From an uncultured Gemmatimonadaceae bacterium (GTDB lineage Bacteria; Gemmatimonadota; Gemmatimonadetes; Gemmatimonadales; Gemmatimonadaceae), in contig CAWBOC010000011.1 in NCBI GenBank assembly GCA_963790305.1, positions 1 to 46,571 of the forward strand: a stretch of 46,571 bases of DNA. The letters are read 5' to 3'. Made by a program: the position numbers and the translations under genes. The notes beneath the pieces are model-generated. The model did no database searches, was not told where the DNA came from, and saw only the letters and a list, made by a program, of their open reading frames with translations. Shown here in pieces: positions 6,481 to 39,416 of this stretch. Within the stretch, counting starts at the first letter, position 1; each line of letters opens with the position of its first letter.

Positions 6481-6613
6481 GAGGTTGTCGAGGAGGTCGA
6501 GGTCGTCCAGGGTGTCTAGGTAGACCCACTTCCTCAGGGGATCTTGGAGTATTCTCACGTCGCTGCCCCCGCCGACTACCTCGACGACCTCGATCACCTC
6601 GACGACCCTCGAC
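6481..6613. repeat. Inverted pair of 9-bp tandem arrays (GAGGTCGTC)n ... (GACGACCTC)n
   Basis: GAGGTTGTC GAGGAGGTC GAGGTCGTC CAGGGTGTC TAGGTAGAC ... GACTACCTC GACGACCTC GATCACCTC GACGACCCTC, ending just before ATG 6616. Confidence 0.8.
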
Positions 6614-6615
6614 AA

Positions 6616-8115
6616 ATGACATCACGCGACCTCCTTGCTTCGGTACACGACCTCGACTGGCCCGCCGAGCGCGCGGGAGAGCTCGGCGACGAAATGGTCG
6701 GCTTGTGGACCGAGTATCTCTCGCGCCTTCGTGAGCTTCCGATCACGCACCCGAGCTCGGCCGAAGAGGTCCGCGCTGCAGTCACGCGTGAGGTGCCTGA
6801 CGAGCCCGTTCCAGTCGCCGAGCTCATCGCGTACCTGCGCACGCTCGTTTTCGAGAACTCGACACTCACGGGGCATCCCGGCTTCGTGGCGTACATCTCT
6901 GGAGCGGGCACGGTTCCAGGCGCAGCCGCAGACCTCATCGCGGCCGCGATCAATCAGAACGTGGGCGGATGGCGTCTATCACCGGGCGCCACCGAGATCG
7001 AGCTGCACCTCATGCGCTGGTTTGGGGAGCGGCTCGGCTTTCCCGAGACGGCGGGTGGCTTCATCACAACGGGCGGGGCGATGGCCTCGCTGTTCGGACT
7101 GACGGTCGCGCGCGACGTGCGCGCCGGATGGGACGTTCGCAGGCTTGGCGTCGCCGCTGGTCCACCACTCACGCTCTATGCATCGGCCGAGGTGCACACC
7201 GTCAACGCGCGCGCGTGCGACATGCTCGGGCTGGGCGCCGACGCGCTGCGTCTCATTCCGGTGGACGACCAGCTGCGCATTCGAGTGGATCTCCTCAGCG
7301 AGGCGATCACACGCGACCGCGCGGCGGGGAAAAGGCCACTCGCCGTCATCGCGACGGCTGGCACCGTGGGGACCGGGGCGATCGATCCCATCGACGCGAT
7401 AGCGGATCTGTGCGAGCGCGAAGAGCTCTGGCTTCACGTCGACGGTGCGTACGGCGGTATCGCGGCGCTCACGGACCAGCTGCGTCCGCTGTTCGCCGGC
7501 ATTGAGCGCGCCGACTCAGTGGCGCTCGATCCGCACAAGTGGCTCTACACGCCGCACTCGGGAGGCGCGGTGATCGTGCGCGACCAACGCCAGCTCTCGC
7601 AGGCGTTCGGCGTGAATCCCTCGTATGTCCACGAGGACAAGGAGCTCACGCGTCGCGGCCTCGACTTCTATGCCCACAGCCCGAACTTTTCACGCGGCTT
7701 TCACGCGCTGAAGATCTGGGTCTCGCTGCTTGCCCACGGATGGAGCGCATACCAGCGCCGCATCACGCACGACGTCGCGCTGGCGCGCTATCTGTTCGAG
7801 AGCGCGGGCTCGCACGAGGAGCTCGAGACGGTCGGTCAGCCGCCTGACCTTTCGATTGCGTGCTTCCGCTACGTCCCCCGCGAGCTTCGCGGTGACGCAA
7901 GCGCCGAGCCCTACCTCAACGCGCTCAACGAGCGCCTGATGGCTGAGCTGCAGCTCGGCGGCCGCGTCTTCCCATCGAACGCGGTGATCAATGGCCGATT
8001 CGCCATTCGCGCATGCATCGTGAATTTTCGCACCGAGGTCGCGGACATGGATGCGCTGGTAGACGAAGCGGTCGCACATGGTCGTCGCCTGCACGCGGAG
8101 CGCGGCCGGGCGTGA
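6616..8115 (+). CDS. Group II PLP-dependent amino-acid decarboxylase (DDC/GadA family)
   Basis: HPGFVAYI, SPGATEIE, ATAGTVGTGAID, WLHVDGAYGG, DPHKWLY (PLP Lys), IRACIVNFRT. Start moved to 6616 because the upstream extension is repeat-derived. Confidence 0.93.
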   Translation: MTSRDLLASVHDLDWPAERAGELGDEMVGLWTEYLSRLRELPITHPSSAEEVRAAVTREVPDEPVPVAELIAYLRTLVFENSTLTGHPGFVAYISGAGTVPGAAADLIAAAINQNVGGWRLSPGATEIELHLMRWFGERLGFPETAGGFITTGGAMASLFGLTVARDVRAGWDVRRLGVAAGPPLTLYASAEVHTVNARACDMLGLGADALRLIPVDDQLRIRVDLLSEAITRDRAAGKRPLAVIATAGTVGTGAIDPIDAIADLCEREELWLHVDGAYGGIAALTDQLRPLFAGIERADSVALDPHKWLYTPHSGGAVIVRDQRQLSQAFGVNPSYVHEDKELTRRGLDFYAHSPNFSRGFHALKIWVSLLAHGWSAYQRRITHDVALARYLFESAGSHEELETVGQPPDLSIACFRYVPRELRGDASAEPYLNALNERLMAELQLGGRVFPSNAVINGRFAIRACIVNFRTEVADMDALVDEAVAHGRRLHAERGRA

Positions 8116-8148
8116 CGCCGCCCGGGCGAATCGAGTCTTTTCATCGAG

Positions 8149-8547
8149 ATGCTGATTCGCCATTCGTTCATCGGGCTCGCTCTGCTGGTCACCGCCTGCG
8201 GCGGTGACGTGGCATCCATGCGTCCTACGCCGGCGCAGGAGTTCGTCATCCAGGTGGAAGGCGAGCAGTTCCGCCTGCGCACCAGCAATCCGGCGACCGC
8301 GAGCGCCCTCGACGCGCGCCGCCGCTCCGGAACGCTCGGCGTCGTCTCCGGCCGCCTCGTGCGTGGCGACGGCGGCTTCAACGTGCCGTGGAGCTGGCAT
8401 CTCGACCCGCTCTCGATCGAGGTTCCCCAGGCCTCGATCGAGCTGTGCGATGGGCGGCCTTCAATGGTCCAGGGCGATCTCGAGTACTGGGTCGACACCG
8501 TAGGCAGGTACTGCCCCTGGGCCGCGCGAGTGTACGACGCTCAATAA
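8149..8547 (+). CDS. Small lipoprotein, probable BP74-N-like domain
   Basis: Lipobox LVTA-C; conserved-looking core PWSWHLDP..IELCDGRPS..YCPW. Confidence 0.65.
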   Translation: MLIRHSFIGLALLVTACGGDVASMRPTPAQEFVIQVEGEQFRLRTSNPATASALDARRRSGTLGVVSGRLVRGDGGFNVPWSWHLDPLSIEVPQASIELCDGRPSMVQGDLEYWVDTVGRYCPWAARVYDAQ

Positions 8548-8626: not shown

Positions 8627-8629
8627 TAC

Positions 8630-8682
8630 ACACTTCTCTCACAACTGTAGCGTTGTATCCGGTCGAATGGCCGCCCTATCAT
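8630..8682 (+). promoter_or_regulatory. 22-bp putative regulator box plus sigma70-like promoter of the kinase gene
   Basis: ACACTTCTCTCACAACTGTAGC (8630-8651; 19/22 identical to 11146-11167), followed by TTGTAT-N18-TATCAT. Confidence 0.55.
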
Positions 8683-8691: not shown

Positions 8692-10440
8692 ATGCGTGCC
8701 CTCCTGTCCCGGCGTCCCAGCTGGCCCCTCGTCCTTCTTTTTGCCAGCCTCGGCGCCACCGCCATTGCGGCCATCGAGGCTCATCGGACGGTTCGATCGC
8801 AACGCGCGCTCGCCGAGCACGCGCTGCGCGATTACGCGGCCTTCGCATCGTGGAGCTACCAGCAGCACCTCCGCGAGTCAATGAGCGGTGCCGTTCGGGA
8901 GGCGTTAGGTGCGGTGAATCACGGCGACAATCTCCACACCGCTCCGGAGATACCGGATGCCTCCGAAGTCCCGCACTACCTGCCGTGGGACGACGGCTGC
9001 TCCTGCCACAAGCCTCGGCTCGGCCCCATCCCGGCTGCCTTTTTCGGATTCACGTTAGGCGGTGACACGCTGGGTCTGGCGCTCAATACGCATACCCATC
9101 CCGAGCACGGCTGGCTTGTCCAGCCGCCGCGAGAGCCGGTGCCGGTACCGGCGACGCTGGTCAATGACCGCGAGGAGCGACGCTGGGTCACCGACACCCT
9201 CACCGCACAAATACGCGGGGGCGTCCGGTCGGACTGGCGGTACAACGTCGTGGTCGGTGAGTGGCGCGGGGAACCGCGCCTGCTCGCCTACACCCTCATG
9301 CCCACGACGCGTGGCGACACGGTCGTCTACGGCGCGACGTATACGCAAAGCTCGTTTGCCTCGCTGCTCGGCGGCATCCTCGACCGCGATGGTGTGCTAC
9401 CGGCGAGCTTCACGCGCGATCGTCGCAATCGCGACATCGTGACGATTGCCGTGACGAATGCGCGTGGTCGCGCACTGTACGAATCGAGCCCCGGAACCGA
9501 GTGGCGGTTCGACGCGTCGAGCACGCTTCCGCTGTCCTTCGGCGCGCTTCACGTGCGGGCGCAGATCCGGCCGGCGCTCGCGGGCGAGATCATCATCGGC
9601 GGGCTGCCGAGGTCTCGGCTTCCGTTCCTGCTCGCGCTCCTGGCACTGTCGGCGGCGCTGGCCGTGGTGGCCGTCATGCAGCTGCGTCGAGAAGAGGAGC
9701 TTTCCACCCAACGCGCTCGATTCGTCTCTGGCGTATCCCACGAGCTGCGCACGCCGCTGGCGCAGATTCGCCTCTATCTCGAGACGCTGCGCCTTGGGCG
9801 CTTTCGCACCGACGCCCAGCGTGAGCGCTCACTCGAGCAGATCGACCGGGAGACCCGGCGCCTCGCGCACCTGGTCGAGAACGTTTTGCGCTTCTCGCGT
9901 CGAGGCACGCAAGCGCCTGACGACGTTGCGAGGGAGCCGGTCGACGTCGCCAGCGAGGTGCAGGAGGTGGCGAGCGAGCTGGCCTTGCTCGCCGCGGCAC
10001 GGCGGGCGACCATCGCCGTCGAAGTGCGTGGTCACCCCACCGTGATCATGGTCCCCGGGACGCTGCGACAGGTCCTCATCAATCTCCTCGACAATGCCGT
10101 GAAATACGGGCCGCCCGAGCAGAGCGTTCGCGTCACCGTGGAAGGGGATGCACGCTCGGCGCGGATTGAAGTGCTCGACGAGGGGCCGGGGATACCCGCG
10201 CCGGAACGTGAGGTGGTCTTTCAGCCATTTCGCCGCGGACGCGCTGCGGCATTGAGCGGGGCGGGGGGTAGCGGCATCGGGCTGACGATCGTGCGCGAGA
10301 TCGTCGTGGCGCATGGCGGCGTGGTATCGGTCGCCGACTCTCAGCAGGGGGCAAGAATCGTCGTGGAGCTTCCCGCGGTCGCCGCGAGCTCGAGCGAGCG
10401 GCCGAGCATCGCGCGTGAGTCATCGCCAGTCGCGACCTGA
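8692..10440 (+). CDS. Membrane sensor histidine kinase (HisKA + HATPase_c)
   Basis: Two TM segments around a large extracytoplasmic domain; H-box VSHELRTPL, N-box NLLDNAVKY, DEGPGI, GSGIGL. Confidence 0.93.
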   Translation: MRALLSRRPSWPLVLLFASLGATAIAAIEAHRTVRSQRALAEHALRDYAAFASWSYQQHLRESMSGAVREALGAVNHGDNLHTAPEIPDASEVPHYLPWDDGCSCHKPRLGPIPAAFFGFTLGGDTLGLALNTHTHPEHGWLVQPPREPVPVPATLVNDREERRWVTDTLTAQIRGGVRSDWRYNVVVGEWRGEPRLLAYTLMPTTRGDTVVYGATYTQSSFASLLGGILDRDGVLPASFTRDRRNRDIVTIAVTNARGRALYESSPGTEWRFDASSTLPLSFGALHVRAQIRPALAGEIIIGGLPRSRLPFLLALLALSAALAVVAVMQLRREEELSTQRARFVSGVSHELRTPLAQIRLYLETLRLGRFRTDAQRERSLEQIDRETRRLAHLVENVLRFSRRGTQAPDDVAREPVDVASEVQEVASELALLAAARRATIAVEVRGHPTVIMVPGTLRQVLINLLDNAVKYGPPEQSVRVTVEGDARSARIEVLDEGPGIPAPEREVVFQPFRRGRAAALSGAGGSGIGLTIVREIVVAHGGVVSVADSQQGARIVVELPAVAASSSERPSIARESSPVAT

Positions 10441-11124
10441 ATGGCGCGCATTCTGATCGTCGAAGACAGCGAGGATCTCGCCGAAGCGCTCGCGCACAAT
10501 CTCGAGCTGGAAGGACATGATGCGAAGATCGCCGGCGACGGTCGTGTTGCCCTCGCGACCGCGAGCGAATGGGAGCCGCATCTCGTCATACTCGATCTCA
10601 TGCTGCCCGGCATCAATGGGTACGAAGTGCTGCGCCGGTTGCGCGGCAATGACTACGACGGCCCGGTGATGATCCTCACCGCGAAGGGCGAGGAAGCCGA
10701 CAAGGTGAGAGGCTTCCGGCTCGATGCCGATCAGTACGTCACGAAGCCGTTTGGTCTGCTGGAATTGCTCGAGCGCGTGTCCTCGCTGCTCCGGCGATCG
10801 GGCGCGCGCACCCCGCCTGAGCGGCCGCGGATCGAGTTCGGCACCATCGCGATCGACCCGGCTTCCCGCTCGGTGACCCGCGCCGGGGAGCGCGTAACGC
10901 TCACGCCAAAGGCGTACGATCTGCTAATGGCGCTCATCGAGCGCGACGGCGCCGTCATCTCGCGCGCCGAGCTTCTGCGTGAAGTGTGGGGCTACGGCGC
11001 GTTCGTGCTCTCCCGGACTGTCGACTCGCACGTTGCCGAGCTCCGGCGGAAGCTCGAGGGCGACCCGACGAACCCGCGCCACATCGTCACCGTGTGGAAG
11101 GTGGGATACCGGTTCGTGGTGTGA
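10441..11124 (+). CDS. OmpR/PhoB-family response regulator
   Basis: ILIVEDS..LDLMLP..KPF receiver; winged helix SRTVDSHVAELRRKL..TVWKVGYRF. Confidence 0.96.
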   Translation: MARILIVEDSEDLAEALAHNLELEGHDAKIAGDGRVALATASEWEPHLVILDLMLPGINGYEVLRRLRGNDYDGPVMILTAKGEEADKVRGFRLDADQYVTKPFGLLELLERVSSLLRRSGARTPPERPRIEFGTIAIDPASRSVTRAGERVTLTPKAYDLLMALIERDGAVISRAELLREVWGYGAFVLSRTVDSHVAELRRKLEGDPTNPRHIVTVWKVGYRFVV

Positions 11125-11145
11125 CCCTCGCGGGGACCCGCGCTA

Positions 11146-11167
11146 ACACATCTGTCACAACTGTCGC
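11146..11167 (+). promoter_or_regulatory. Putative response-regulator binding box upstream of the sulfur-relay operon
   Basis: ACACATCTGTCACAACTGTCGC; overlaps CTAACA-N5-GTCACA, an 11-bp-period direct repeat typical of OmpR/PhoB sites. Confidence 0.6.
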
Positions 11168-11187
11168 ACCGAACGGCCAACCATTCA

Positions 11188-11252
11188 GGACTGCGAGCTG
11201 CGAACTTCGAACCGCAAGCTGTTCCTCGTGCGCACTTCGCCGTCCGCAGTCT
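11188..11252. repeat. Inverted heptamer arrays (RACTGCG)n ... (CGCAGTC)-like
   Basis: GACTGCG AGCTGCG AACTTCG AACCGCA ... CACTTCGC CGTCCGC AGTC in the leader of the rhodanese gene. Confidence 0.7.
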
Positions 11253-11271
11253 TCTCTCTCTTGGAGGCCTC

Positions 11272-12171
11272 GTGCTTCTCTCCTTCGCCGTCGTTGTCGC
11301 GGTCGCGACCAGCACCCCAGCCGCATCCGACTCGGCGTGGCCCGCCTCAATGGTGGTATCCGCCGAGTGGCTCGCCAGCCATCGCGACGATCGCAGGGTC
11401 GTACTCCTGCACGTCGGCGAGCGGCGTGGCTACGAGCGCGAGCACATTCCCGGTGCGCGCTACATCTCCTTCGAGGACGTCGCACGGCGCGGCGAAGCGG
11501 CGGGCGGCAACACGCTGGAGATGCTCCCTCCGGAAGAGCTGCGCGCGAACCTGGAGCGATTCGGCATCTCCGACGATTCGCGCATTGTCGTGTACTACGC
11601 CGACGAATGGGTCTCGCCCGCAACCCGCGTCATCTTCACCCTCGATTGGTTCGGCCTCGGCGACCGCACGACACTCCTCGACGGCGGCATCGATGCCTGG
11701 AAGCGCCGAGGACTCCCGCTCACCAACGACGTTCCACCGGCTGCGAACGGAAGGCTGTCGTCGCGCACGCCGCGACCGATCATCGTCGACGCCGCCTGGG
11801 TTCGCGCGAACGCACCTGGGAAGGGCGTCGCATTGGTCGACGCGCGCGCGCCCGTGTACTACGACGGCCCAAAGCACGGCGAGCACCGTCCCGGACACAT
11901 TCCCGGCGCCGTGAACATCCCGTTCACGGCCCTCGCGGACGACAGCATGCGCCTCACGAGCCTCACCGCCTTGCGCGACCAGTTCCGAGCCGCCGGCGTG
12001 AAAGACGGCGACACCATCGTCGCGTACTGCCACATCGGTCAGCAGGCGACAGCGGTTCTGTTTGCGGCGCGCGCGCTCGGGTACCAGGTGAAGCTGTACG
12101 ACGGCTCATTCGACGATTGGTCGCGGCGCACCGAGCTCCCGGTGGAAAGCTCGCGGAAGGGCAGCGAGTGA
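11272..12171 (+). CDS. Exported tandem-domain rhodanese / sulfurtransferase (SseA/TST-like)
   Basis: Signal-peptide-like N-terminus; EHIPGA, GHIPGAVNIP, active site YCHIGQQA, LYDGSFDDW; GTG start with RBS GGAGG. Confidence 0.92.
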   Translation: MLLSFAVVVAVATSTPAASDSAWPASMVVSAEWLASHRDDRRVVLLHVGERRGYEREHIPGARYISFEDVARRGEAAGGNTLEMLPPEELRANLERFGISDDSRIVVYYADEWVSPATRVIFTLDWFGLGDRTTLLDGGIDAWKRRGLPLTNDVPPAANGRLSSRTPRPIIVDAAWVRANAPGKGVALVDARAPVYYDGPKHGEHRPGHIPGAVNIPFTALADDSMRLTSLTALRDQFRAAGVKDGDTIVAYCHIGQQATAVLFAARALGYQVKLYDGSFDDWSRRTELPVESSRKGSE

Positions 12172-12689
12172 GCTCCGGCGCGCGCGGGGCGCCGTACGGC
12201 AGCCCCTACCTCGCTGGCGTCGGGATCGGGGTCGTGCTGATCGTCACTTACGTCGTCATGGGCCACGGAATCGGCGTGTCCGGTGCGCTGACGAGCGTCG
12301 TCGGCACCGCGGCGACGGCCGCGTCGAACGCGCCGGCATTACCGGCGTGGGACGGGTATGCAGCCAGCGGATTTGGCGCGCTCCTCGGCGACTGGTTCGT
12401 CGTCGAGGTGATAGGGATCACGTTAGGCGGCCTCGCGTCGGCTGCGCTGGCGGGGCGGCTCCGCCGCGATACCGAGCGGGGCGACGGCGTCGGTGTGAGC
12501 CGGAGGTTGGCGTTCGCGGCAAGCGGCGGCGCCATCATGGGGATCGGGGCGCGGCTCGCGAAGGGATGCACGAGCGGGCAGGCACTCACGGGCGGGTCGC
12601 TGCTCAGCGTCGGCAGCTGGATCTTCATCGCCACGGCGTTCGCGGCGGCGTATCTCGTGGCACCGCTCGTGAGGCGCGAGTGGCGATGA
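12168..12689 (+). CDS. YeeE/YedE family sulfur-compound transporter subunit 1
   Basis: SPYLAGVGIG.., GARLAKGCTSGQALTGG; GTG overlaps the upstream TGA. Confidence 0.9.
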   Translation: MSSGARGAPYGSPYLAGVGIGVVLIVTYVVMGHGIGVSGALTSVVGTAATAASNAPALPAWDGYAASGFGALLGDWFVVEVIGITLGGLASAALAGRLRRDTERGDGVGVSRRLAFAASGGAIMGIGARLAKGCTSGQALTGGSLLSVGSWIFIATAFAAAYLVAPLVRREWR

Positions 12690-13276
12690 TCGCTCCTGTC
12701 TACGACACAGGCGCCCTGGGCCCGGGCAGCGGGCTCGCCGTTGCGTTGGCCGTTGGTGTTGCCTTCGGCTTCTTTCTCGAGCGCGCGGGACTCGGGAGCG
12801 CACGGAAGCTGTCCGCGCAATTCCAGCTCACCGATTTCACGGTGCTGAAGGTCATGTTCACCGCGATCATCACCGCCTCGCTGGGAATCTTCTGGCTCTC
12901 GCGACTTGGCGCACTCGATCTCACTCGCGTCTATGTCCCCGAGACCTATCTGGTGCCTCAGTTGGTCGGTGGGGCGGTGTTTGGCGCCGGATTCGTGATC
13001 GCGGGACTCTGCCCGGGCACGGCGTGCGTCTCGGCTGCAACGGGACGAGGCGATGGCGTGGCGGTCGTTGGCGGACTGTTGCTGGGCATTCTGGCGTACG
13101 GCGCGATGCATCCGGTCGTCGAGCGGTTCGCGAGCTCGACACCGCGTGGGACGTTCACGCTGCCGCAGCTCATCGGCACGTCGCACGGCGTGACCCTGCT
13201 GATTCTGGTGAGTGCCGGACTCGCGGCCTTCCGTGGAGCGCAGTGGCTCGAGTCGCGACGGGCGGCACGCGTATGA
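12686..13276 (+). CDS. YeeE/YedE family sulfur-compound transporter subunit 2
   Basis: GVAFGFFLERAG, DFTVLKVMFTAI, GFVIAGLCPGT; ATGA coupling. Confidence 0.9.
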   Translation: MIAPVYDTGALGPGSGLAVALAVGVAFGFFLERAGLGSARKLSAQFQLTDFTVLKVMFTAIITASLGIFWLSRLGALDLTRVYVPETYLVPQLVGGAVFGAGFVIAGLCPGTACVSAATGRGDGVAVVGGLLLGILAYGAMHPVVERFASSTPRGTFTLPQLIGTSHGVTLLILVSAGLAAFRGAQWLESRRAARV

Positions 13277-13848
13277 CGACGGTCGCCAAGCGCACCATCC
13301 ATCGCGGGCTTGCCGCGGCTGCACTGGTGCTGGCAACGCTCGCCGCGGTGACGGGCGATGCGTCTTCGAGCGGAACCTCCCGCGTCGGTGCGGAGGTGAC
13401 CGCTCTCGAGCTCGCTGGCTGGATTCGCGAGGCGAGGCCCAACCTGCGCGTCCTCGATCTTCGCGACGCCAGGGCGTTCGAATCATTCGCCATTCCCGGT
13501 GCCGAGCGCATGAGCGCGGCGGAGCTCGCCCGCGTGCGCTGGGAGCGTGAGGCGAACATCGTCGTCTACTCGGACAGCGAGAGCACCTCGCGGAATGCGA
13601 CGGAGGTGCTGCGCTCAGCCGGAGTGCGGAATGCATATGTCCTGCGCGGTGGCGTGGCAGAATGGGTGAGCACGATCGCCGCGCCGGTCCTGCCGGCGAA
13701 TCCGTCTCCCGAGCAGGCTGCGATTTCACGTGACATCGCCGAAATGAGTCGCTGGTTTGGTGGCGTGCCGCGCGTGGGCGATCCCGTTTCAACGACTGGC
13801 GACAGCCTCCGTGAAGCGCTCGGGCGCATCAGGCGGCGCGGATGCTGA
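13273..13848 (+). CDS. Membrane-anchored/exported single rhodanese-like domain lacking the active-site Cys, with C-terminal RRRGC
   Basis: N-terminal hydrophobic helix, VLDLRD..IPGA, IVVYS (Ser for Cys), LRGGVAEW; ends RRRGC*. Confidence 0.8.
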   Translation: MTTVAKRTIHRGLAAAALVLATLAAVTGDASSSGTSRVGAEVTALELAGWIREARPNLRVLDLRDARAFESFAIPGAERMSAAELARVRWEREANIVVYSDSESTSRNATEVLRSAGVRNAYVLRGGVAEWVSTIAAPVLPANPSPEQAAISRDIAEMSRWFGGVPRVGDPVSTTGDSLREALGRIRRRGC

Positions 13849-15230
13849 CAGGGGTCCGCGCTGCGACGCAGAGTGTCGAGGAGGCGCATGACGACGCGCG
13901 CTATTTCGCTCTCCTGCGCGCGCGTGAGCTCTCGCGCGTTGATCGTGAGCGCCAGACCTACCTCGACTGGACGGGAAGCGCATTACACCCCGAGTCGCTC
14001 GTCAGACGGCACGTTCAGGCCCTTCACGAGACCGTTCTGGGCAATCCCCACTCCGACAGTGTGGCCTCGCGGGCGAGCACAGAGCTGATCGAACAGGCGC
14101 GTGCCGCGGTACTGCGCTTTCTCGATGCGCCTGCCGAGGAGTACGACGTGTGCTTCAGCGCGAACGCCTCGGGCGCGATGCGGCTGGTCGGTGAGGCATA
14201 CCCGTTTGGGCGGGAATCTCAGCTCGTACTCGCCGCTGACAATCACAACTCTGTCAACGGTCTTCGCACCTACGCGCGCGCCGCCGGCGCCACGGTACGT
14301 GTGCTGTCGCTCGATGCAGACCTGCGGCTCGAGGGCGGCGTGGCAGCACTCGGTGTTGAACGCGTGGCTGGACCTTCGCTCATGGCGTTTCCGGCACAAT
14401 CCAACTTCTCCGGTGTGCGGCATCCGCTCGCGCTCGTCGATCGGGCGCACGAGCTGGGTTTCGATGTGCTGCTCGACGCCGCGGCCTTCTTGCCGACGTC
14501 GCCTCTATCGCTGCGCGACGTCCCAGCAGACTTCGTCGGTCTCTCGCTGTACAAGATCGCGGGCTATCCATCCGGCATCGGCGCGCTGGTCGCACGCCGG
14601 GCGGCACTGGCCGCGCTCCGGCGACCATCCTTCTCCGGGGGGACGGTCGAAGCCGTTTCCGCATGGGATGACGTCCACGTGCTCAAGGGCAACGCGGAAG
14701 CGTTCGAGGATGGAACGGTCAATTTCCTCGGCCTCGCCGCCGTCCCCGCGGCGCTCGAGTTCATGGCGACCATCGGCGTGCCGCGTATCTCACGTCGAGT
14801 CGGCGCACTCGGTCGCGAGCTGCAGCACCGGCTTGCATCGCTGCGCCATCGAAACGGCGCACCGCTCGTCGCGCTCTACGGCGCCCGCGGGGAGGATCGG
14901 GGCGCGACGATCGCCTTCAACGTGCTCGACGCGACCGGCACCGTTATTCCCTACTGGCTCGTCGAAGAGCGGGCTCGTGGAATGCGCGTGTCCATCCGCG
15001 GCGGCTGCTTCTGTAATCCCGGCGCGGCGGAGCGCGCGCTCGGGATCGATTCCAATGCACTCGCCGATTGCCTGCGCCAGGCACGCGAGCAGCGCGTCGC
15101 GTTCTCCCACGCGTGGCTGGCCGAATGCCTCGGCACACCGGTTGGCGCGCTACGGATCTCGCTCGGCTACGGGACAGACGCGGGCGATATTTCGCGTGGT
15201 CTTGGCGTTGTCGTGCGTTGGAGGACGTAG
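13842..15230 (+). CDS. Class V PLP enzyme, cysteine desulfurase of the molybdenum-cofactor-sulfurase (MOCOS/ABA3 NifS-domain) type
   Basis: YLDWTGS, GNPHS, DNHNSVNG, FPAQSNFSG, LLDAAA, SLYKIAGYPSGIGAL, FEDGT, RGGCFCNPG; no MOSC domain. Confidence 0.85.
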   Translation: MLTGVRAATQSVEEAHDDARYFALLRARELSRVDRERQTYLDWTGSALHPESLVRRHVQALHETVLGNPHSDSVASRASTELIEQARAAVLRFLDAPAEEYDVCFSANASGAMRLVGEAYPFGRESQLVLAADNHNSVNGLRTYARAAGATVRVLSLDADLRLEGGVAALGVERVAGPSLMAFPAQSNFSGVRHPLALVDRAHELGFDVLLDAAAFLPTSPLSLRDVPADFVGLSLYKIAGYPSGIGALVARRAALAALRRPSFSGGTVEAVSAWDDVHVLKGNAEAFEDGTVNFLGLAAVPAALEFMATIGVPRISRRVGALGRELQHRLASLRHRNGAPLVALYGARGEDRGATIAFNVLDATGTVIPYWLVEERARGMRVSIRGGCFCNPGAAERALGIDSNALADCLRQAREQRVAFSHAWLAECLGTPVGALRISLGYGTDAGDISRGLGVVVRWRT

Positions 15231-15245: not shown

Positions 15246-15275
15246 TTGAAATAGGGGTGGGGGGTATGCTAGCCT
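15246..15275 (+). promoter_or_regulatory. copZA promoter with overlapping CsoR/RcnR-like G-tract operator
   Basis: TTGAAA-N18-TAGCCT with an extended-10 TG; spacer contains ATAGGGGTGGGGGGTAT; ATG is 6 nt after the -10, so probably leaderless. Confidence 0.65.
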
Positions 15276-20365: not shown

Positions 20366-20446
20366 TCCGCACGGGCGGAGGGCGCGCCATCCGGCGCCCC
20401 CGCCACCCTTCCGGAACCATTCGCGCGTGCGGTGCGTAATGCCCGC

Positions 20447-21196
20447 ATGAGCACCACTGCGTCATCGTGGCCGCGCACGTACTGGCGGCAGAGCCGCGCC
20501 CACCGTTATAGCCTCCTCTTCGCGCTCCCGCTCCTCGTTGCCTACGAGGTGCTGGCCGCTATCCTCGGCCACGGGGAAGCACAGGCCATCCGTAACGGGG
20601 CCGACGTTCTTCTGAAGGGCGCCTTCATGGCGCTGTTGGGTGAGCACGGCCCGCTGGTATTCGGCGTGCTCCTGATCGGGGTCGCCCTCTGGCTGGTGAT
20701 CCGTGACATGCGGGCGCACGGCTCCAGGCTGTCTCCACGAATCTTCGCCGGGATGATGGCGGAGTCCATCGTGCTGGCGCTGGCGTTCGGGATCGTCGTA
20801 TCGACAATCACGAGCCGAGTGCTCGCGCCGTTCGCGGCACTCGTCCAGACGTCGATGGAGGAGCTCGACCTCATGACGCAGCTCATGGTTTCGCTCGGCG
20901 CGGGACTGTACGAGGAGCTGCTCTTCCGCGTGCTGTTGGTGGGGGCGATCGCGGCGTTAGGCGCCCGCGCTCTGGGATGGCGTCCCCTGACGGCGGGCGC
21001 CGTGGCGGTCGGCGTCGGGGCGCTGATCTTCTCGGCGTTCCATTACGTCGGTCCCTTCGGCGACCGACTGGAAGCTGGATCATTCACTTTTCGCCTCATC
21101 GCCGGCCTCTTCTTCAGCGCGCTGTTCGTCACTCGTGGATTTGGCATCACTGCCTGGACGCACGCGCTCTATGATGTCTTCCTGCTTTTTGGCTGA
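20447..21196 (+). CDS. CPBP (CAAX/Abi) family intramembrane protease
   Basis: EELLFR, FSAFHY, HALYD motifs; multiple TM helices. Confidence 0.9.
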   Translation: MSTTASSWPRTYWRQSRAHRYSLLFALPLLVAYEVLAAILGHGEAQAIRNGADVLLKGAFMALLGEHGPLVFGVLLIGVALWLVIRDMRAHGSRLSPRIFAGMMAESIVLALAFGIVVSTITSRVLAPFAALVQTSMEELDLMTQLMVSLGAGLYEELLFRVLLVGAIAALGARALGWRPLTAGAVAVGVGALIFSAFHYVGPFGDRLEAGSFTFRLIAGLFFSALFVTRGFGITAWTHALYDVFLLFG

Positions 21197-26604: not shown

Positions 26605-26693
26605 GTAACCCCTTGGTGCGATGGTTCGTCGAAGATATAGCAAAATGCGACGGTCCGGGTACCTCGGCAGCGTCGCGAAACGCAAAACGGAGC

Positions 26694-26781
26694 GGATTGC
26701 CGATTGCCGATTGCGGGCTGCGGACCGCTATCGTGCGAATTCCCCTCCGGTTCGCCATCAGCAATCAGCAATCCGCAATCC
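26694..26781. repeat. Inverted heptamer arrays (GATTGCC)n ... (GCAATCA)n
   Basis: GGATTGC CGATTGC CGATTGC GGGCTGC ... ATCA GCAATCA GCAATCC GCAATCC, ending 15 nt before the pilS ATG. Confidence 0.85.
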
Positions 26782-26795
26782 TCGATCTCTCCCCC

Positions 26796-28436
26796 ATGCT
26801 AGACTCCCGCCGCATCGTTCGCTGGGCGTACATAGGCCGCCTGTCGCTGTCCGCCGCGATCTTCTCCGCGGCGCTTTTCGCGTGGGAAATCGCCAACCCG
26901 ACGAACACCCGCCTCGCCGCGCTCATGCTCGTTGGGGCCATGGTTTTCACCGTCGGCTCGGCGTGGTTCGAGATGACGCGCCCGGAACGGACCGGCCGCG
27001 CGTTCTTCTATCTGCAAACTCTGTTCGACCTCATCCTCGTGACCGCGACCGTGCACATCACGGGCGGGGCGAGCTCGCCGTTTGCGGCGCTGTACATCCT
27101 CGTCATCGCCTATGCGTCACTGGTGCTGCCCATTGGGAGCGGCCTCCTGGTGGCTGGGTTCGGCAACGTACTGTACATCGGCGACGTCGTCTGGAATCAC
27201 GGCCACGAGATTGGCGCAAGTGTCTGGCTGCAGCTCGCGATCTTCGCGCTGGCCGCCCTCGGGACGGGGGTGCTGGCCGCCCGGATGCGCGAGGCAGGTG
27301 CCGGTCATGCACTGCAACTCGAAGCCCAGCTCGAGCGCGTACGCCTTCAGGCGGATGACGTGCTTCGCACCATTCGCAGTGGAATTCTCACCGTCGAGCA
27401 TAACGGCGCCCTCGCGTTCGCCAATCCGGCCGCCGGGCGCATGCTCGGCTTCGAGCCCGCCCGGGCGATCGGGACTCCCATCCGCGAGCTCTTCGGCGAG
27501 AAAGCACCCGTTCTGGTCCAGGCGCTCGAGCGCACGATTCGCGATCGCATTCGCATCTCGCGCTGGGAAGCGACGATTGCTGGAGAAAGCGGCCCATTTC
27601 CCATCGGTCTGAACACGACCACCATCGACGCCGACGGCACGCCCGAGGGCATCTCGGCGACGGCGATCTTCCAGGACATCACGGACTCCAAGCGTCTCGA
27701 AGAGCTCCGCCTGCGGGCCGAGCGCCTGGAGGGCGTAGCGGAGCTGAGCGCGTCGCTCGCGCACGAGATCAAGAACCCGCTGGCCTCCATTCGCAGTGCG
27801 GTCGAGCAGCTCTCGCGAGCGCGGCAAACCACGGACGACGCGCGCACCCTTTCGGCGCTGATCATTCGTGAGTCGGACCGCCTCTCGCGGCTCCTTTCGG
27901 AGTTTCTCGATTTCGCGCGCACGCGCGTGACGCGCATCGCGGAAGTGGATCTCGGGGACCTGGTGAAAGGTGCTGTCAAGCTCGCCGCAACCCACCCCGA
28001 TGGTCACAAGCGCGTTCGCGTCTCGTGTGCGACCCCCACACACGGCATCCCGGTCGAAGGGGACGAGGACCTGCTTCATCGCGCGGTGTTCAACATCGCG
28101 CTCAACGCGGTGCAAGCGGCGCGCGATGACGGCCACGTCTGGGTAGAGGTTGCCTCGGTTCCGCCCGAGCAGCTGCCCGTCGGCGTGTCATTCGAGCGTG
28201 GCGCCGCTTCCGTCCGCATCACCGATGACGGTCCCGGCATTCCCGCCGAAGTTCGCGGCAAGATGTTCGACCCCTTTGTCACCACGAAACCCGGCGGCAC
28301 CGGTCTCGGCTTGCCGATCGTGCATCGCGCGATCGAAGCGCACCGCGGCCTCGTCTTCGTCGATAGCGGCACCTCAGGGACGCGCTTCACCGTGCTCCTG
28401 CCACGCCGCCAGCCCAAACCCGAGGAGTCTCAGTGA
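26796..28436 (+). CDS. pilS: PilS-type sensor histidine kinase (TM region + PAS + HisKA + HATPase)
   Basis: TGGASSPFAALY TM motif, PAS NPAA, AHEIKNPLASI, DPFVTTKPGGTGLGL. Confidence 0.85.
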   Translation: MLDSRRIVRWAYIGRLSLSAAIFSAALFAWEIANPTNTRLAALMLVGAMVFTVGSAWFEMTRPERTGRAFFYLQTLFDLILVTATVHITGGASSPFAALYILVIAYASLVLPIGSGLLVAGFGNVLYIGDVVWNHGHEIGASVWLQLAIFALAALGTGVLAARMREAGAGHALQLEAQLERVRLQADDVLRTIRSGILTVEHNGALAFANPAAGRMLGFEPARAIGTPIRELFGEKAPVLVQALERTIRDRIRISRWEATIAGESGPFPIGLNTTTIDADGTPEGISATAIFQDITDSKRLEELRLRAERLEGVAELSASLAHEIKNPLASIRSAVEQLSRARQTTDDARTLSALIIRESDRLSRLLSEFLDFARTRVTRIAEVDLGDLVKGAVKLAATHPDGHKRVRVSCATPTHGIPVEGDEDLLHRAVFNIALNAVQAARDDGHVWVEVASVPPEQLPVGVSFERGAASVRITDDGPGIPAEVRGKMFDPFVTTKPGGTGLGLPIVHRAIEAHRGLVFVDSGTSGTRFTVLLPRRQPKPEESQ

Positions 28437-29815
28437 TCGCCCCCGCCCCCGATCCACGCCCCAGCGTCCTGATCGTGGATGATGAATCCGCGATCCTGGA
28501 CACGCTGCGGATCTTGTTGAAGAACGAAGGCTTCGAGACGCACGTCGCGCTCGGTGGCAAGCAGGGCATCGAGCGCCTCCACGACGTGAAGCCCGACATC
28601 GTCATTACCGATGTGCGGATGCCTAACGTCGGCGGCCTCGAGGTGTTGAGCGCCGCACGCCAGCGCGACCCCGACCTTCCCGTGATCCTGATGACGGCGC
28701 AGGCCGACCTGCGCTCGGCGATCCAGGCCGTGAACGCGGGCGCGTACTACTACGTGCAGAAGCCGTTCGCCAACGATGACATCGTCGCGATTCTGCGCCG
28801 TGCCGCCGAGCACCGGCAGCTGCGGGTCGAAAACAAGTCGCTCAAGCAGGAGATCAAGCGGCGCGGCTTCGATACGTCCTCTCGCCCCATCGGCCGAAGC
28901 AAAGCTTGGCTCGACGTGCTGCGCCTCGCCGAGACCGTGGCACCATCCGAGTCAACGGTGTTGATCCAGGGCGAGTCGGGAACCGGTAAGGAAGTAGTCG
29001 CGCGGTACATTCACGAGCTCTCGGGAAGGGCCGATGCGCCTTTCCTCTCCATCAACTGTGGCGCGCTGCCGGAATCGCTACTCGAGAGCGAGCTTTTCGG
29101 ACACGTGAAGGGATCCTTCACCGGTGCGGTGAAGGACAAGGCTGGTCTGTTCACGGCCGCCGCGGGGGGAACGTTCTTCCTCGACGAAATTGGCGAGACG
29201 ACGCCCTCGACGCAGGTGAAGCTGCTGCGTGCATTGCAGGAGCGTGAGATCATCCCCGTCGGTGCGACGGAAGCCATTCCGACCGACGCCCGCGTGCTCG
29301 CGGCGACCAACCGAGAGCTCGAGGAGGAGATGAAGCGCGGGGGATTCCGCAGCGATCTCTTCTATCGCTTGAACGTGTTCGCGCTGCACCTGCCGCCGCT
29401 GCGGCATCGCAAGGAGGACATCCCACTCCTGGCGACGTCCTTCCTCGAGCGCACCTCGAAAGTGCGCGGGGAGCCGCTCAAGCGGCTCAGCGAGGAAGCG
29501 CTCGAGATCATGCGGGAGTACGCATGGCCGGGCAACGTGCGTGAGCTGGAGAACTCGCTCGAGCGCGCGGCCATTCTGACGGCGGGGGAGGTCATCGATC
29601 CCTCGACGCTGCCCGAGCGGATCACCGAGCGCAGATCCGAGCCGCTCATCAGCGAGCGCGGTCCCACCAACCCAACCCTCGACGTCATTGAGCGCGCCTA
29701 CATCATGTGGGTGCTCCAGAGCGAAGGGGGCAACAAGAGCCGCGCGGCCGAAGTGTTAGGCATCGATCCCTCCACGCTCTACCGCAAGCTCTCCCGGTTC
29801 GGCGTCGAAGCCTGA
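28433..29815 (+). CDS. pilR: Sigma54-dependent response regulator (PilR/NtrC type)
   Basis: Receiver, GESGTGKE, GSFTGA, FFLDEIG, WPGNVRELEN, Fis-type HTH. Confidence 0.85.
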   Translation: MIAPAPDPRPSVLIVDDESAILDTLRILLKNEGFETHVALGGKQGIERLHDVKPDIVITDVRMPNVGGLEVLSAARQRDPDLPVILMTAQADLRSAIQAVNAGAYYYVQKPFANDDIVAILRRAAEHRQLRVENKSLKQEIKRRGFDTSSRPIGRSKAWLDVLRLAETVAPSESTVLIQGESGTGKEVVARYIHELSGRADAPFLSINCGALPESLLESELFGHVKGSFTGAVKDKAGLFTAAAGGTFFLDEIGETTPSTQVKLLRALQEREIIPVGATEAIPTDARVLAATNRELEEEMKRGGFRSDLFYRLNVFALHLPPLRHRKEDIPLLATSFLERTSKVRGEPLKRLSEEALEIMREYAWPGNVRELENSLERAAILTAGEVIDPSTLPERITERRSEPLISERGPTNPTLDVIERAYIMWVLQSEGGNKSRAAEVLGIDPSTLYRKLSRFGVEA

Positions 29816-29817
29816 TC

Positions 29818-31032
29818 ATGACGGCGCGGCCGCTTCCGTCGCTCCGGTGGGAGCTGCTCGGGAACCTCGCGGTTCTCGCGACCGCCGCGCTCATGCTGGC
29901 GGTCGCCAGTTTGCTCGTGTTCACCGGCATCGCCGAGAGCCGGAACGCCGCGCTCTGGCTGACGCTGCTCATCATCGCTGACGTGATGATCTTCGTCGTG
30001 TTCGGGGGATACCTCGTGCGACGACTCGTCATTCGGCCGGTCGATGAGATCGTCGCCGCCGCGGAGGCGATCGCGCAAGGAGATCTGGCGCGACGCGCTC
30101 CACCCATGGGCTCGGTGGAGCTGGCGCGCCTTGCGACGAGCCTCAATCGCATGACCACACGCCTCCTGGAGGAGCAGACCCTGGTGGTGCGCGCCGAGAA
30201 GATGGCGAGCGTCGGGCGGTTGGCCGCGGGCATCGCCCACGAGATCGGCAATCCCCTTGGGGCGATCAATGGCTACACGCACCTCGCTCGGCGGCGGCTG
30301 CGCGACAGAGGGCTCGACGACGAGCTCGATGCCATCGAGCGCGAGACGGCCCGCATCGACCGCATCGTGCGCGGCCTGCTGGACTATTCCCGACCGCGTC
30401 GCACAACGCCGGAATTGATCGAGATCGACGAGTGCGTCCAACGAGTCGTGATGATGCTACGCGACCAGGGTGCACTCAAAGAGGTACAGGTTCACAGGGA
30501 AATCCTCGCCAGCGTCCCCGCGCTCACGGGCGACCGGCACGAGTTCGAGCAGGCGATCGTGAACCTGCTGCTCAACGCGATCGACGCGATGGAAGGCCGC
30601 GGAGCGGTGACGATCGCCGCGCGGGGCGATTCATTGGCGGCCCTGCGCGACAATGTCGCCCTGCGTAAGGGGGATTCCCCGAGCGTGCTGGCGGAGCGTG
30701 AGCGGAACCCGCGTGTACGCGCGTGGCTCCATCGAGTCGGGGAACCCTCGCGCATCCTTACCGTGACGGTCGCGGATTCAGGCCCCGGCGTCGATCCGGA
30801 GGACATGGAGCGCATCTTCGATCCATTCTTCACGACCAAGCCACCGGGGAAGGGCACTGGCCTCGGCCTCGCCATCGTTGCTCGCATCGTCGACAACCTC
30901 GGCGGCGTCGTGTGGGTGCGTCCGGCGCGGGAGGGCGGTGCCGCGTTCGTGATGATGTTCCCGCTCGGGGTGGTGGTCTCCTCGCCGGTGAGTCTCATGC
31001 CGCCGGTGCGCGAGGGAGCGCTCGTTCGGTGA
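29818..31032 (+). CDS. Second sensor histidine kinase (2 TM + HAMP + HisKA)
   Basis: EKMASVGRLAAGIAHEIGNPL, NLLLNAIDA, DPFFTTKPPGKGTGLGL. Confidence 0.92.
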   Translation: MTARPLPSLRWELLGNLAVLATAALMLAVASLLVFTGIAESRNAALWLTLLIIADVMIFVVFGGYLVRRLVIRPVDEIVAAAEAIAQGDLARRAPPMGSVELARLATSLNRMTTRLLEEQTLVVRAEKMASVGRLAAGIAHEIGNPLGAINGYTHLARRRLRDRGLDDELDAIERETARIDRIVRGLLDYSRPRRTTPELIEIDECVQRVVMMLRDQGALKEVQVHREILASVPALTGDRHEFEQAIVNLLLNAIDAMEGRGAVTIAARGDSLAALRDNVALRKGDSPSVLAERERNPRVRAWLHRVGEPSRILTVTVADSGPGVDPEDMERIFDPFFTTKPPGKGTGLGLAIVARIVDNLGGVVWVRPAREGGAAFVMMFPLGVVVSSPVSLMPPVREGALVR

Positions 31033-31037
31033 CTGGC

Positions 31038-32391
31038 ATGCGCATTCTCATCATCGATGATGAGCCCGCATTGAGACACACCATTCTCGGCAATCCTTCA
31101 CGACGAGGGACATGAGGTGACGACCGCGACCAATGGCGAGGACGCACTCGGCAAGCTCGCGGTCGCGCCGGCCGATCTCATCCTCTGCGACGTGCGCATG
31201 CCGACGATGGATGGTATGACCTTCCTGGGGCGTCACGTCGGTGGTGGAGGAGCGGGGCTGGTCGTGATGATGAGCGCCTATGGCGATTCGGAGACTGCGA
31301 TCGCCGCCATGCAACGCGGTGCCTACGACTGGATCCAGAAGCCGTTTCGCGCCGAGGAGATCGTGCTCGTCGTGCGAAAGGCAATGGAGCGGGAGCGACT
31401 GCGTGCCGAGGTAAAGCGGCTCGAGGGTGAGCTGTCGACGCTCCGTCAGTCAGGCGACGCGATCATCGGCCGCAGCGAGGTCATGCGCACGGCGCTCGAT
31501 GTCGCCCGCAAGGTTGCGCGGCATCCTGCGACGGTGCTGCTCACCGGTGAGAGCGGTACGGGAAAGGAGCTCGTGGCGCGTCTCATCCATCGCGCGAGCC
31601 CACGAGCGGAGGCGCCCTTCGTAGCAGTGAACTGCGGTGCGATTCCGGAAGCCCTGCTGGAAAGCGAGCTCTTCGGACACGAGAAGGGCGCTTTCACCGG
31701 GGCCACGCGCGACAAGGCCGGACTGTTCGAGGAAGCGCACGAGGGGACACTCTTTCTCGACGAGATCGGGGAGCTACCAGCCGCCTTACAGGTGAAGCTC
31801 CTGCGTGCGCTGCAGGAGGGTGAAGTGCGACGCGTGGGGGCCAACACCTCGAAGGCCGTTGATGTCAGGGTCGTCGCGGCAACGAATCGCGATCTTCAGG
31901 CAGACGTCGCGAGCGGGCGTTTTCGCGCCGATCTGTTTTATCGCATCAACGTGGTGGCGATCGCGCTCCCGCCGTTGCGCGAGCGGCCGGACGACGTGCC
32001 CGAGCTCGCGCTGTTCTTTCTCGAGCGACATGCGGCGCGAATGGGTCTCAAGGCGCACGGCATTTCGGCGAGCGCAATGCGGATTCTCGCTGAGCATCCA
32101 TGGCCGGGCAACGTGCGCGAGCTGGAGCATGCGATCGAGCGCGCGCTGGTGATGACGGGCGGGAAGACGATCGAGCCGTCGGATCTCCCGTCGCCGGTGC
32201 GCTCGAGCGGCCGGCACGCGGCGGTGACGGACGGGACGCTGTCGGTGAAGCAGCAGACGACCGAGCTCGAGAAGGCATTGATCCGCCGCGCCCTCGAGCA
32301 CACGCGCGGAAATCGAACCCGTGCAGCGCGGTTGCTGGAGCTCTCGCATCGCGCGCTGCTCTACAAGATCCGGGAATACGGATTGGAGTAG
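31038..32391 (+). CDS. Second sigma54-dependent response regulator (one frameshift near 31085)
   Basis: MRILIIDDEPALR in one frame joins the 31117-32391 ORF with DVRMP, GESGTGKE, GAFTGA and an HTH. Confidence 0.9.
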
Positions 32392-32414
32392 CGCAGTTCG
32401 CGGTGGCCTACTCT

Positions 32415-32452
32415 CTACGCAAACAGTTGCAACACTGAACTTCTTTGCGTAG
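32415..32452. promoter_or_regulatory. Inverted repeat: terminator-like hairpin or activator-binding site
   Basis: CTACGCAAA...TTTGCGTAG, 55-90 bp upstream of the -24 element. Confidence 0.4.
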
Positions 32453-32505
32453 CGACCGACCGGACCGAACAAACACAACGCTTTCGCCGATAACGAGTTA
32501 GCGCA

Positions 32506-32520
32506 TGGCATGGGTCGCGC
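32506..32520 (+). promoter_or_regulatory. Sigma54 (-24/-12) promoter of the minor-pilin operon
   Basis: TGGCATGGGTCGCGC = TGGCA with GG-N10-GC spacing; RBS AGGAG and ATG 30 nt downstream; adjacent to two bEBP genes. Confidence 0.6.
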
Positions 32521-32550
32521 CTATGTGTACCGCGTCACCCAGGAGCCTTC

Positions 32551-33000: not shown

Positions 33001-33001
33001 C

Positions 33002-34368: not shown

Positions 34369-34370
34369 CG

Positions 34371-35504: not shown

Positions 35505-35525
35505 ATCACGGCACCGATGACAGCT

Positions 35526-35553
35526 TTCAGAATAGAGAATTCAGAATTCAGCT
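35526..35553. repeat. Heptamer array (TTCAGAA)n
   Basis: TTCAGAA TAGAGAA TTCAGAA TTCAGCT after the pilX-1 stop. Confidence 0.7.
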
Positions 35554-35557
35554 AAAC

Positions 35558-35595
35558 CTACGGGGAGCCAGTCGTGGCTCCCCGTAGTCGTTTCT
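35558..35595 (+). terminator. Terminator hairpin between the two pilVWX cassettes
   Basis: CTACGGGGAGCCA-GTCG-TGGCTCCCCGTAG followed by TCGTTT. Confidence 0.75.
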
Positions 35596-36081: not shown

Positions 36082-36087
36082 CGACCG

Positions 36088-39398: not shown

Positions 39399-39416
39399 CC
39401 CTCTCCCGACGACCCC

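Follow-up and report, generated by a model that had tools for sequence, protein, structure and literature searches.

The YeeE/YedE-family (PF04143) proteins characterized in the papers cited here are described as importers or signal relays; published systems are referred to here as they appear in the accessible text of the papers cited. TsuA, the channel of the TsuA-TsuB (YeeE-YeeD) system, is a single chain of 330–350 residues with three cysteines, of which Cys293 lies on the periplasmic side and Cys91 and Cys22 on the cytoplasmic side (PMC7449682, PMC11073785). Its N terminus is outside, its H7-H8 loop and C terminus are inside (PMC7449682), and a cysteine of its partner, a cytoplasmic TusA-family protein, continues the relay. 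PmpAB/YedE1E2 of Serratia and Cupriavidus is an adjacent pair of half-size PF04143 proteins, each with an essential loop cysteine and, in the text available, without an equivalent of Cys22 (PMC10812762, PMC11582611); the halves have ∼130 residues, four helices, and one conserved cysteine each (PMC11582611). In the present study, we analyzed a window of 46,571 nucleotides, one whole contig (CAWBOC010000011.1, assembly GCA_963790305.1) of the 4.3-Mb, 94% complete genome of an uncultured Gemmatimonadaceae bacterium, and found a sulfur operon in which a related YeeE pair is encoded together with two rhodaneses (RhdA and RhdB) and a pyridoxal phosphate (PLP) enzyme. We read this operon as encoding a persulfide relay, most likely directed outward, that would carry cysteine-derived sulfane sulfur over the inner membrane to a periplasmic rhodanese, and we assign this reading a probability of about 45%.

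The operon appears to be an undescribed variant of the YeeE sulfur relays, in which the new part is a tethered cysteine arm and a reversal of direction is possible. No paper describing the gene set or the RhdB arm was found in a literature search that left most subscription papers and all supplements outside; PMC13047784, PMC9516567, and PMC2593051 describe other arrangements, the last of these leaving the physiological role of periplasmic rhodaneses open in the case of Escherichia coli PspE. As the original prediction for this DNA had described, the five genes overlap directly behind a histidine kinase/OmpR pair, and this observation was confirmed with the corrections given below. All of the genes lie at the stated positions on the + strand and are intact, and the junctions from rhdA through the PLP gene read GTGA, ATGA, ATGA, and ATGCTGA.

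The YeeE Pair Corresponds to the Two Halves of TsuA

The genes yeeE1 (12168..12689, + strand) and yeeE2 (12686..13276, + strand) encode proteins of 173 and 196 residues, and the pair matches Pfam Sulf_transp (PF04143) with 70.2 and 50.7 bits against a cut-off of 27. They are the sole PF04143 genes of the genome, and among the matches listed the closest relative of YeeE2 comes from another Gemmatimonadaceae genome (88% identity). The YeeE2 profile aligned to the N-terminal half and the YeeE1 profile to the C-terminal half of Spirochaeta TsuA (6LEO/8K1R), so that YeeE2 is PmpB-like with an extra helix and YeeE1 is PmpA-like. Cys134 in the GCTSG motif of YeeE1 is equivalent to periplasmic-side Cys293 of TsuA, and Cys109 in the GLCPGTAC motif of YeeE2 to Cys91. 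TsuA Cys22 has no counterpart in YeeE2, where the position reads ERAGLG. YeeE2 has a second conserved cysteine, Cys114, which the original prediction overlooked; over 68 aligned rows of the CPGTxC motif Cys109 is invariant and Cys114 is kept in at least 90%, a figure biased upward because part of the motif was in the locus-scan pattern. This mapping and the chain of conserved cysteines support the trans-envelope cysteine relay that had been proposed.

Both proteins stand well apart from the named subfamily (NCBIfam TsuA model NF052577, score 31–32 against a cut-off of 400). YeeE2 has five hydrophobic segments, so its C terminus should be cytoplasmic. A predicted complex of YeeE1, YeeE2, and RhdB scored 0.29 against a mark of 0.32 with no controls folded, and it was used neither for nor against the relay. 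The pair shares with TsuA-TsuB its fold family, the Cys91 and Cys293 positions, and a partner-protein cysteine that continues the relay, but the gene is split, Cys22 is absent, and the additional cysteine partner is RhdB, which would be periplasmic. The adjacent half-size genes, a loop cysteine in each half, and the missing Cys22 are common to PmpAB/YedE1E2 and the present operon, which differs in the greater length of its halves, in the extra helix and second cysteine of YeeE2, in the added RhdB arm, in having exported RhdA or PsrABC as a partner, and in a cytoplasmic desulfurase that takes the place of a persulfide dioxygenase or glutathione sink.

RhdB Carries a Conserved Cysteine at the End of a Basic Tail

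The rhdB gene (13273..13848, + strand) encodes an N-terminal anchor, a rhodanese fold, a helical linker, and a basic tail that ends in RRRGC (Cys191). The predicted model (predicted local distance difference test score, 89) consists of an N-terminal helix, the rhodanese fold, and two more helices, and in the PDB it is matched best by single rhodanese domains. None of the 125 rows of the RhdB alignment has a cysteine at the rhodanese catalytic position, whereas the terminal Cys191 is invariant in all of them. The earlier description of this protein as Cys-less is accordingly correct for the rhodanese active site and incorrect for the protein, which keeps a near-invariant terminal cysteine. Among 141 representative relatives no longer than 450 residues (5 longer ones were dropped), a cysteine lies within the last seven residues in 137, basic residues precede the terminal cysteine in 133, and this cysteine is the only one of the protein in 108.

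Natural fusions of YeeE2 to RhdB occur at four loci (L064, L066, L068, and L069), and five such proteins were found in the survey of RhdB relatives; in these fusions a basic linker connects YeeE2 with the RhdB helix. Taken together with the topology of TsuA, these fusions would place the RhdB domain and its cysteine tail in the periplasm.

Two carriers offer a comparison. Wolinella Sud is a periplasmic rhodanese-fold carrier that serves the polysulfide reductase PsrABC, and SoxY is a swinging arm tipped by a C-terminal Gly-Cys. RhdB differs from Sud in lacking the rhodanese catalytic cysteine and in being membrane-anchored or fused to YeeE; it resembles SoxY in its C-terminal Gly-Cys arm, but the fold is unrelated.

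Two further explanations of the tail were considered. The rhdB stop codon follows GC as TGA in 15 of 15 cases and the genome has a tRNA-Sec, a combination that raised selenocysteine read-through; this was rejected because TAG and TAA also follow GC and the TGA bias is explained by the overlapping ATG/GTG-CTG-A start codon. In the window the start codon of the PLP gene overlaps the Gly-Cys codons of rhdB, and the same overlap is present in 24 of 28 loci. CAAX-type lipidation, suggested by an Rce1-like gene at 20432-21196, was set aside on the grounds that the recurrent neighbors listed do not include this family and that most tails end at the cysteine.

RhdA and the PLP Enzyme Resemble Known Sulfurtransferases and Moco Sulfurase

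The first gene of the operon, rhdA (11272..12171, + strand), encodes a predicted Sec-exported tandem rhodanese (two Pfam rhodanese domains) whose only cysteine, Cys253, occupies the catalytic position of the second domain in the loop YCHIGQQA. Two domains with the cysteine in the second alone correspond to the definition of thiosulfate/mercaptopyruvate sulfurtransferases, and RhdA matches tandem sulfurtransferases in the PDB with an E value of 7e-27. RhdA and its relatives have signal-peptide-like N termini, and 47 of 48 relatives keep the loop CH[IVL]G. The CHIGQQ loop departs from the signature Cys-X-X-Gly-X-Arg given for tandem sulfurtransferases (PMC8931425), and the SseA model NF008557 scores 116.8 against a cut-off of 250. 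Tandem duplication of rhdA was observed at L062, L066, L084, and L099, and the extra copy at L062 has the loop CMVGLRA.

The last gene (13842..15230, + strand) encodes a class-V PLP enzyme of 462 residues with Lys238 and the motif RGGCFCNPG (Cys389/Cys391), both kept in 11 of 11 aligned rows. Over its entire domain the enzyme shares 33% identity with a named Moco (molybdenum cofactor) sulfurase of a eukaryote (E 1e-66), and Aminotran_5+MOSC proteins of eukaryotes match its profile with E values from 1e-73 to 1e-84; the best solved desulfurase is far behind at E 4e-21, so that the proposed Moco-sulfurase-like label stands. The named NCBIfam desulfurase subfamilies all score below cut-off. The second cysteine of the GCFC motif is the catalytic one in ABA3. 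With ABA3/MOCOS and ABA3-STR18 the operon has in common the NifS-like domain, the PLP lysine with RGGCFCNPG, and the pairing of desulfurase with rhodanese (PMC8931425), but the C-terminal MOSC domain is absent, Pfam finding Aminotran_5 alone in the enzyme. SufS- and IscS-like enzymes are encoded separately in the genome, and the operon enzyme is thus additional to the housekeeping desulfurases.

Members of the same subfamily occur in other settings. Eight proteins (P0193 and P0195-P0201) join it to an LmbE/PIG-L deacetylase and a cyclic nucleotide-binding domain. Stand-alone enzymes adjoin a persulfide-dioxygenase-like fusion of metallo-β-lactamase and rhodanese domains, or rhdA alone (L195:6476-9282 and L185:4435-7544), which suggests that sulfane sulfur is also handled outside the YeeE operon.

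The possibility that the PLP enzyme acts chiefly as a selenocysteine lyase, with a relay that moves or detoxifies selenium, strikes us as very unlikely. YedE relatives have been linked to selenium (PMC11582611), weak NCBIfam matches to selenium families occur, the genome has the tRNA-Sec, and cytochromes like ExtM/ExtP adjoin some loci with psrABC. The selenium-family scores are, however, far below cut-off, the variable stop codons of rhdB speak against read-through, and selD/sel genes are not among the recurrent neighbors (open reading frames of at least 70 residues, with some of the clusters annotated).

The Conserved Core Is yeeE1-yeeE2-rhdB

Loci with the genes in the order rhdA-yeeE1-yeeE2-rhdB-desulfurase were found in Gemmatimonadota, Acidobacteriota, Bacteroidota, and one alphaproteobacterium, a recurrence far beyond chance. 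Among 40 relatives, full-length RhdB orthologues were present in 3 of 8 same-genus genomes and in 0 of 32 others, and the three same-genus carriers keep the entire block from the histidine kinase to copA. A clear orthologue (E < 1e-30) was found in 18 of 401 Gemmatimonadota genomes. In 16 Gemmatimonadota loci outside the genus, the adjacent yeeE pair was present in 15 (one contig is cut), rhdA in 12, and the histidine kinase/response regulator pair in 7, and in 8 of the 12 rhdA carriers a desulfurase lay directly behind rhdB.

When every species genome was scanned with YeeE2 as the query, at least 585 confirmed matches were obtained, of which we kept the best 80, a set that leans to close relatives. 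Of these, 48 were of the RhdA type and 23 had genes for PhsA/NrfC/NrfD-like proteins (psrABC, below NCBIfam cut-offs) in its place; none had both, and 9, mostly on cut contigs, had neither. RhdB accompanied the yeeE pair, at the scan cut-off, in 71 of 74 loci with at least 700 bp downstream. A desulfurase was present in 30 of 41 RhdA-type loci with at least 1.5 kb downstream but in 0 of 22 psr-type loci. The 41 comprise 23 with a Moco-sulfurase-like enzyme (one upstream of rhdA), 6 with a second subfamily (RGGCSCAG), 1 with a third (RNGCFCAHP; L133, outside the automated call), and 11 with no desulfurase.

A separate sample agreed with this division, although at least 5 loci were drawn repeatedly across the samples and related genomes do not count as independent. 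RhdB was found in 39 of 381 genomes of the Bacteroidota phylum and in 5 of 351 genomes of Acidobacteriota, and the 42 regions fetched comprised 25 of the psr type, 13 of the RhdA type, 1 with rhdA and psrAB but no yeeE, and 3 that were cut. The third desulfurase subfamily stood directly behind rhdB in 5 of 12 assessable RhdA-type regions; no desulfurase did so in the 25 psr-type regions, one of which has an enzyme 3.5 kb away.

In a quick tree, the three desulfurase subfamilies (23–29% mutual identity, all with the CxC loop) were separate, and each goes with its own clade of YeeE (35, 5, and 7 rows, with support of 100, 97, and 95). The clades of the first and third subfamilies include loci without a desulfurase, and the YeeE tree (FastTree) was midpoint-rooted, so we claim no order of events. 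A slot that is filled or refilled by non-orthologous desulfurases is the strongest evidence for a functional coupling, and the conserved coupling of a desulfurase proposed in the original prediction is thus supported. The idea that the system is built around the desulfurase was not supported: the conserved core is yeeE1-yeeE2-rhdB, 11 of the 41 loci lack the desulfurase, and psrABC elsewhere replaces RhdA and desulfurase together. These data argue for a desulfurase that is functionally coupled yet dispensable.

The psrABC-yeeE1-yeeE2-rhdB arrangement, with the RhdB tail KKK[KR]EGC, is common in Ignavibacteria/Bacteroidota, Acidobacteriaceae, Opitutaceae, and some Gemmatimonadaceae (e.g. L141:5371-11250). 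It is sometimes preceded by a fusion of cytochrome b and multihaem cytochrome c (11 CxxCH) that resembles Geobacter ExtP/ExtM. In one psr-type region (L236:9032-12706) there are several rhodanese-like open reading frames, two of them ending in PEGGC, and a region from the Acidobacteriota sample (L242:174-9561) combines rhdA with psrA/psrB-like genes and a gene for an RhdB-like protein but has no yeeE, so that the carrier arm is present here and the channel is not.

Outward Transfer Is the Preferred but Tentative Direction

In the mechanism that we propose, the PLP enzyme would strip sulfur from L-cysteine in the cytoplasm, releasing alanine and leaving a persulfide on its own cysteine. The sulfane sulfur would then be handed to Cys114/Cys109 of YeeE2 and on to Cys134 of YeeE1, and the cysteine-tipped arm of RhdB would collect it at the periplasmic face and load the exported RhdA at Cys253. 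From RhdA it could reach periplasmic thiophiles such as sulfite (giving thiosulfate) and protein thiols, and perhaps also cyanide or soft metals. The relay would probably serve to dispose of surplus cysteine sulfur, or else to provide the envelope with persulfide when the periplasmic His/CxC domain of the histidine kinase senses a stress. At psr-type loci this core would deliver to PsrABC in place of RhdA.

Whereas the gene set, its order, the conserved cysteines, the family placements, and the co-occurrence were observed directly, we infer the topology, the order of transfer, the desulfurase activity, the direction, the acceptor, and the signal. Desulfurases donate persulfide to acceptor proteins, and ABA3 donates to a rhodanese; bacterial desulfurase-rhodanese fusions also exist (PMC8931425). 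Export is the simplest reading of a system that has its donor inside and its acceptor outside and shows no recurring sink in the cytoplasm: TusA, persulfide dioxygenase, and thioredoxin were not among the recurrent neighbor clusters as delimited above. Export also suits PsrABC as a periplasmic consumer. The fuller picture, in which YeeE1/YeeE2/RhdB is a sulfane-sulfur exporter with a swinging cysteine arm, part of a modular line from a dedicated desulfurase to the interchangeable clients RhdA and PsrABC, is somewhat more tentative.

Several observations weigh against outward transfer. TsuA (PMC7449682, PMC11073785), SoxT1A (PMC11582611), and YedE1E2 (PMC10812762) all import, and YedE1E2, according to the text available, was tested for export and did not do so. 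A nearby desulfurase is lacking at 11 of 41 RhdA-type loci, and six Gemmatimonadota genomes of this kind have no match to the Moco-sulfurase-like subfamily anywhere. Conversely, 21 of 31 Gemmatimonadota genomes with this enzyme carry it away from the module, and YeeE was found in 0 of 20 stand-alone enzyme regions (∼6 kb on each side where available), one of which has rhdA and one an adjoining persulfide-dioxygenase-like rhodanese fusion. The positive-inside bias of standalone RhdB is modest, 65 of 125 proteins being more basic before the helix, 39 equal, and 21 more basic after it. Finally, neither PAPS (phosphoadenosine phosphosulfate) reductase nor sulfite reductase was found in the 94% complete genome, and cysteine may therefore be precious to this host.

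Some of these points would fit import, the main rival reading, in which RhdA splits thiosulfate or captures polysulfide, the RhdB arm feeds the channel, and sulfur enters for synthesis of cysteine or cofactors. The desulfurase would then be a cytoplasmic persulfide hub or a back-up source, with PsrA/PhsA and RhdA as alternative front ends for the cleavage of thiosulfate. The precedent of TsuA, SoxT1A, and YedE1E2, the mutual exclusion of RhdA and psrABC (0 of the best 80 loci have both), the dispensable desulfurase, and a genome with a CysK-like gene but without assimilatory sulfate reduction all favor it. We nevertheless consider import rather unlikely, because the cytoplasmic slot holds a donor enzyme rather than an acceptor in three forms and no TusA-type partner recurs among the neighbor clusters. 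Moreover, cysH is present in 2 of 18 module-bearing genomes compared with 59 of 401 in the Gemmatimonadota sample, and so it is not rarer where the module occurs. The absence of sulfate assimilation is the norm of the phylum, and a link of the module to sulfur auxotrophy was rejected for want of a signal in the same counts.

A relay that equilibrates the cytoplasmic and periplasmic persulfide pools, with supply setting the direction and RhdA storing or scavenging, seems improbable to us. Transpersulfidation is reversible in textbook chemistry and loci occur with and without the donor. TsuA, moreover, has a pseudo-symmetric hourglass fold (PMC7449682). YedE1E2, in contrast, was directional (PMC10812762). 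We retain outward transfer of cysteine-derived sulfur as the preferred reading.

Repeat Boxes Support Two-component Control in Gemmatimonadota

The operon lies behind genes for a sensor histidine kinase (8692..10440, + strand; Pfam HisKA/HATPase, two transmembrane helices and a periplasmic domain) and an OmpR-family response regulator (10441..11124, + strand; Pfam Response_reg and Trans_reg_C), the latter separated from rhdA by a 147-bp gap. Intergenic regions before rhdA share a CACA repeat with a 10-11-bp period, and tandem direct repeats are typical of OmpR-type sites. We built a matrix from 10 loci outside the genus of the window, with training sites chosen by eye. Its top match in the 4.3-Mb genome was a direct-repeat box (CACA-A/C-C/T-T, 11-bp period; 8627..8651, + strand; 20.9 bits) directly upstream of the histidine kinase gene, a candidate site of autoregulation. 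A tandem direct-repeat box before rhdA (11143..11178, + strand), also a candidate regulator site, ranked 9 in the genome with 15.3 bits, a score reached by 0 of 500 shuffles, although the best shuffle was very close. Held-out loci scored at least 10 in 7 of 9 cases with the regulator upstream (one same-genus) compared with 5 of 32 without it. A simple promoter scan gave nothing that exceeded shuffles.

The presence of the box before both the histidine kinase gene and rhdA supports a putative two-component control of the operon, as had been predicted, within Gemmatimonadota. In the best 80 set the kinase orthologue was present at 13 of 39 assessable RhdA-type loci, all from Gemmatimonadota, and the control is thus lineage-specific. 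A periplasmic CxC is conserved in 21 of 21 operon orthologues of the kinase and also in its paralogue in the genome; NHG is kept in 20 of 21, and the conserved periplasmic histidines are absent from the paralogue. The paralogous kinase/regulator pair (C10:43079-45560; 36% and 58% identity) shares this CxC and is followed downstream by a similar half-site, and cross-talk with it is possible.

The Copper Genes Are Local Neighbors

Pfam matches downstream of the operon were HMA, P1B-ATPase, and CopC+CopD. Of the copZA/copCD adjacency reported earlier, copZA indeed adjoins the operon, but a methyltransferase gene and a further 3.4 kb separate it from copCD, which is on the opposite strand. The end of the operon is marked by a copZA promoter with a G-tract operator-like box (15246..15275, + strand), found in 4 of 4 same-genus loci and kept there despite a spacer of variable length (∼50 to 180 bp) behind the PLP gene. 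A similar box stands before the csoR-family gene of the genome, and we take the copZ box to be of the CsoR type.

The copper-linked role suggested in the original prediction, such as sequestration of Cu-S or sulfuration of a cofactor in the periplasm, was based on this adjacency. The operon adjoins copZA in the window and likewise in 3 of 3 same-genus loci; CopA also lies ∼6 kb away in one further locus, and the His/CxC domain of the kinase could bind a soft metal. Elsewhere the association disappears: CopA was found at 1 of 58 loci with at least 5 kb downstream in the best 80 set, that one being same-genus, and copA at 1 of 16 fetched Gemmatimonadota regions outside the genus. Together with the separate promoter of copZ and its presumed CsoR-type box, these counts leave the copper-linked role with scarcely any credence, and the adjacency is local only.

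Upstream of the histidine kinase gene, a PLP decarboxylase and a BP74-like lipoprotein (6544-8547) are present in same-genus loci only. A type IV pilus region with PilS/PilR-like pairs, two minor-pilin sets, and pilMNO(P)Q, assigned from translations only, occupies 26613-43387. A pilB-like ATPase gene at the contig start (94-2082) and the gene of a large exported protein near the contig end (43406-45914) appear to be split across reading frames, possibly by assembly indels.

Implications for Sulfur Transfer to the Periplasm

If the exporter reading is true, the operon would be the first defined route that gives the periplasm persulfide sulfur, and it would provide a function for stand-alone bacterial Moco-sulfurase-like enzymes. 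It names donor, channel, tethered carrier, and acceptor in one small transcript with single mutable cysteines, and the question of direction is therefore directly testable in E. coli or in a cultured carrier, Ekhidna lutea DSM 19307 (L085), whose locus is of the RhdA type with the second desulfurase subfamily. In many genomes of Bacteroidota/Ignavibacteria, Acidobacteriota, and Verrucomicrobiota the core follows psrABC, which hints at a supply route for polysulfide reductases and has a bearing on the sulfur cycle of soils and sediments, where such heterotrophs are abundant.

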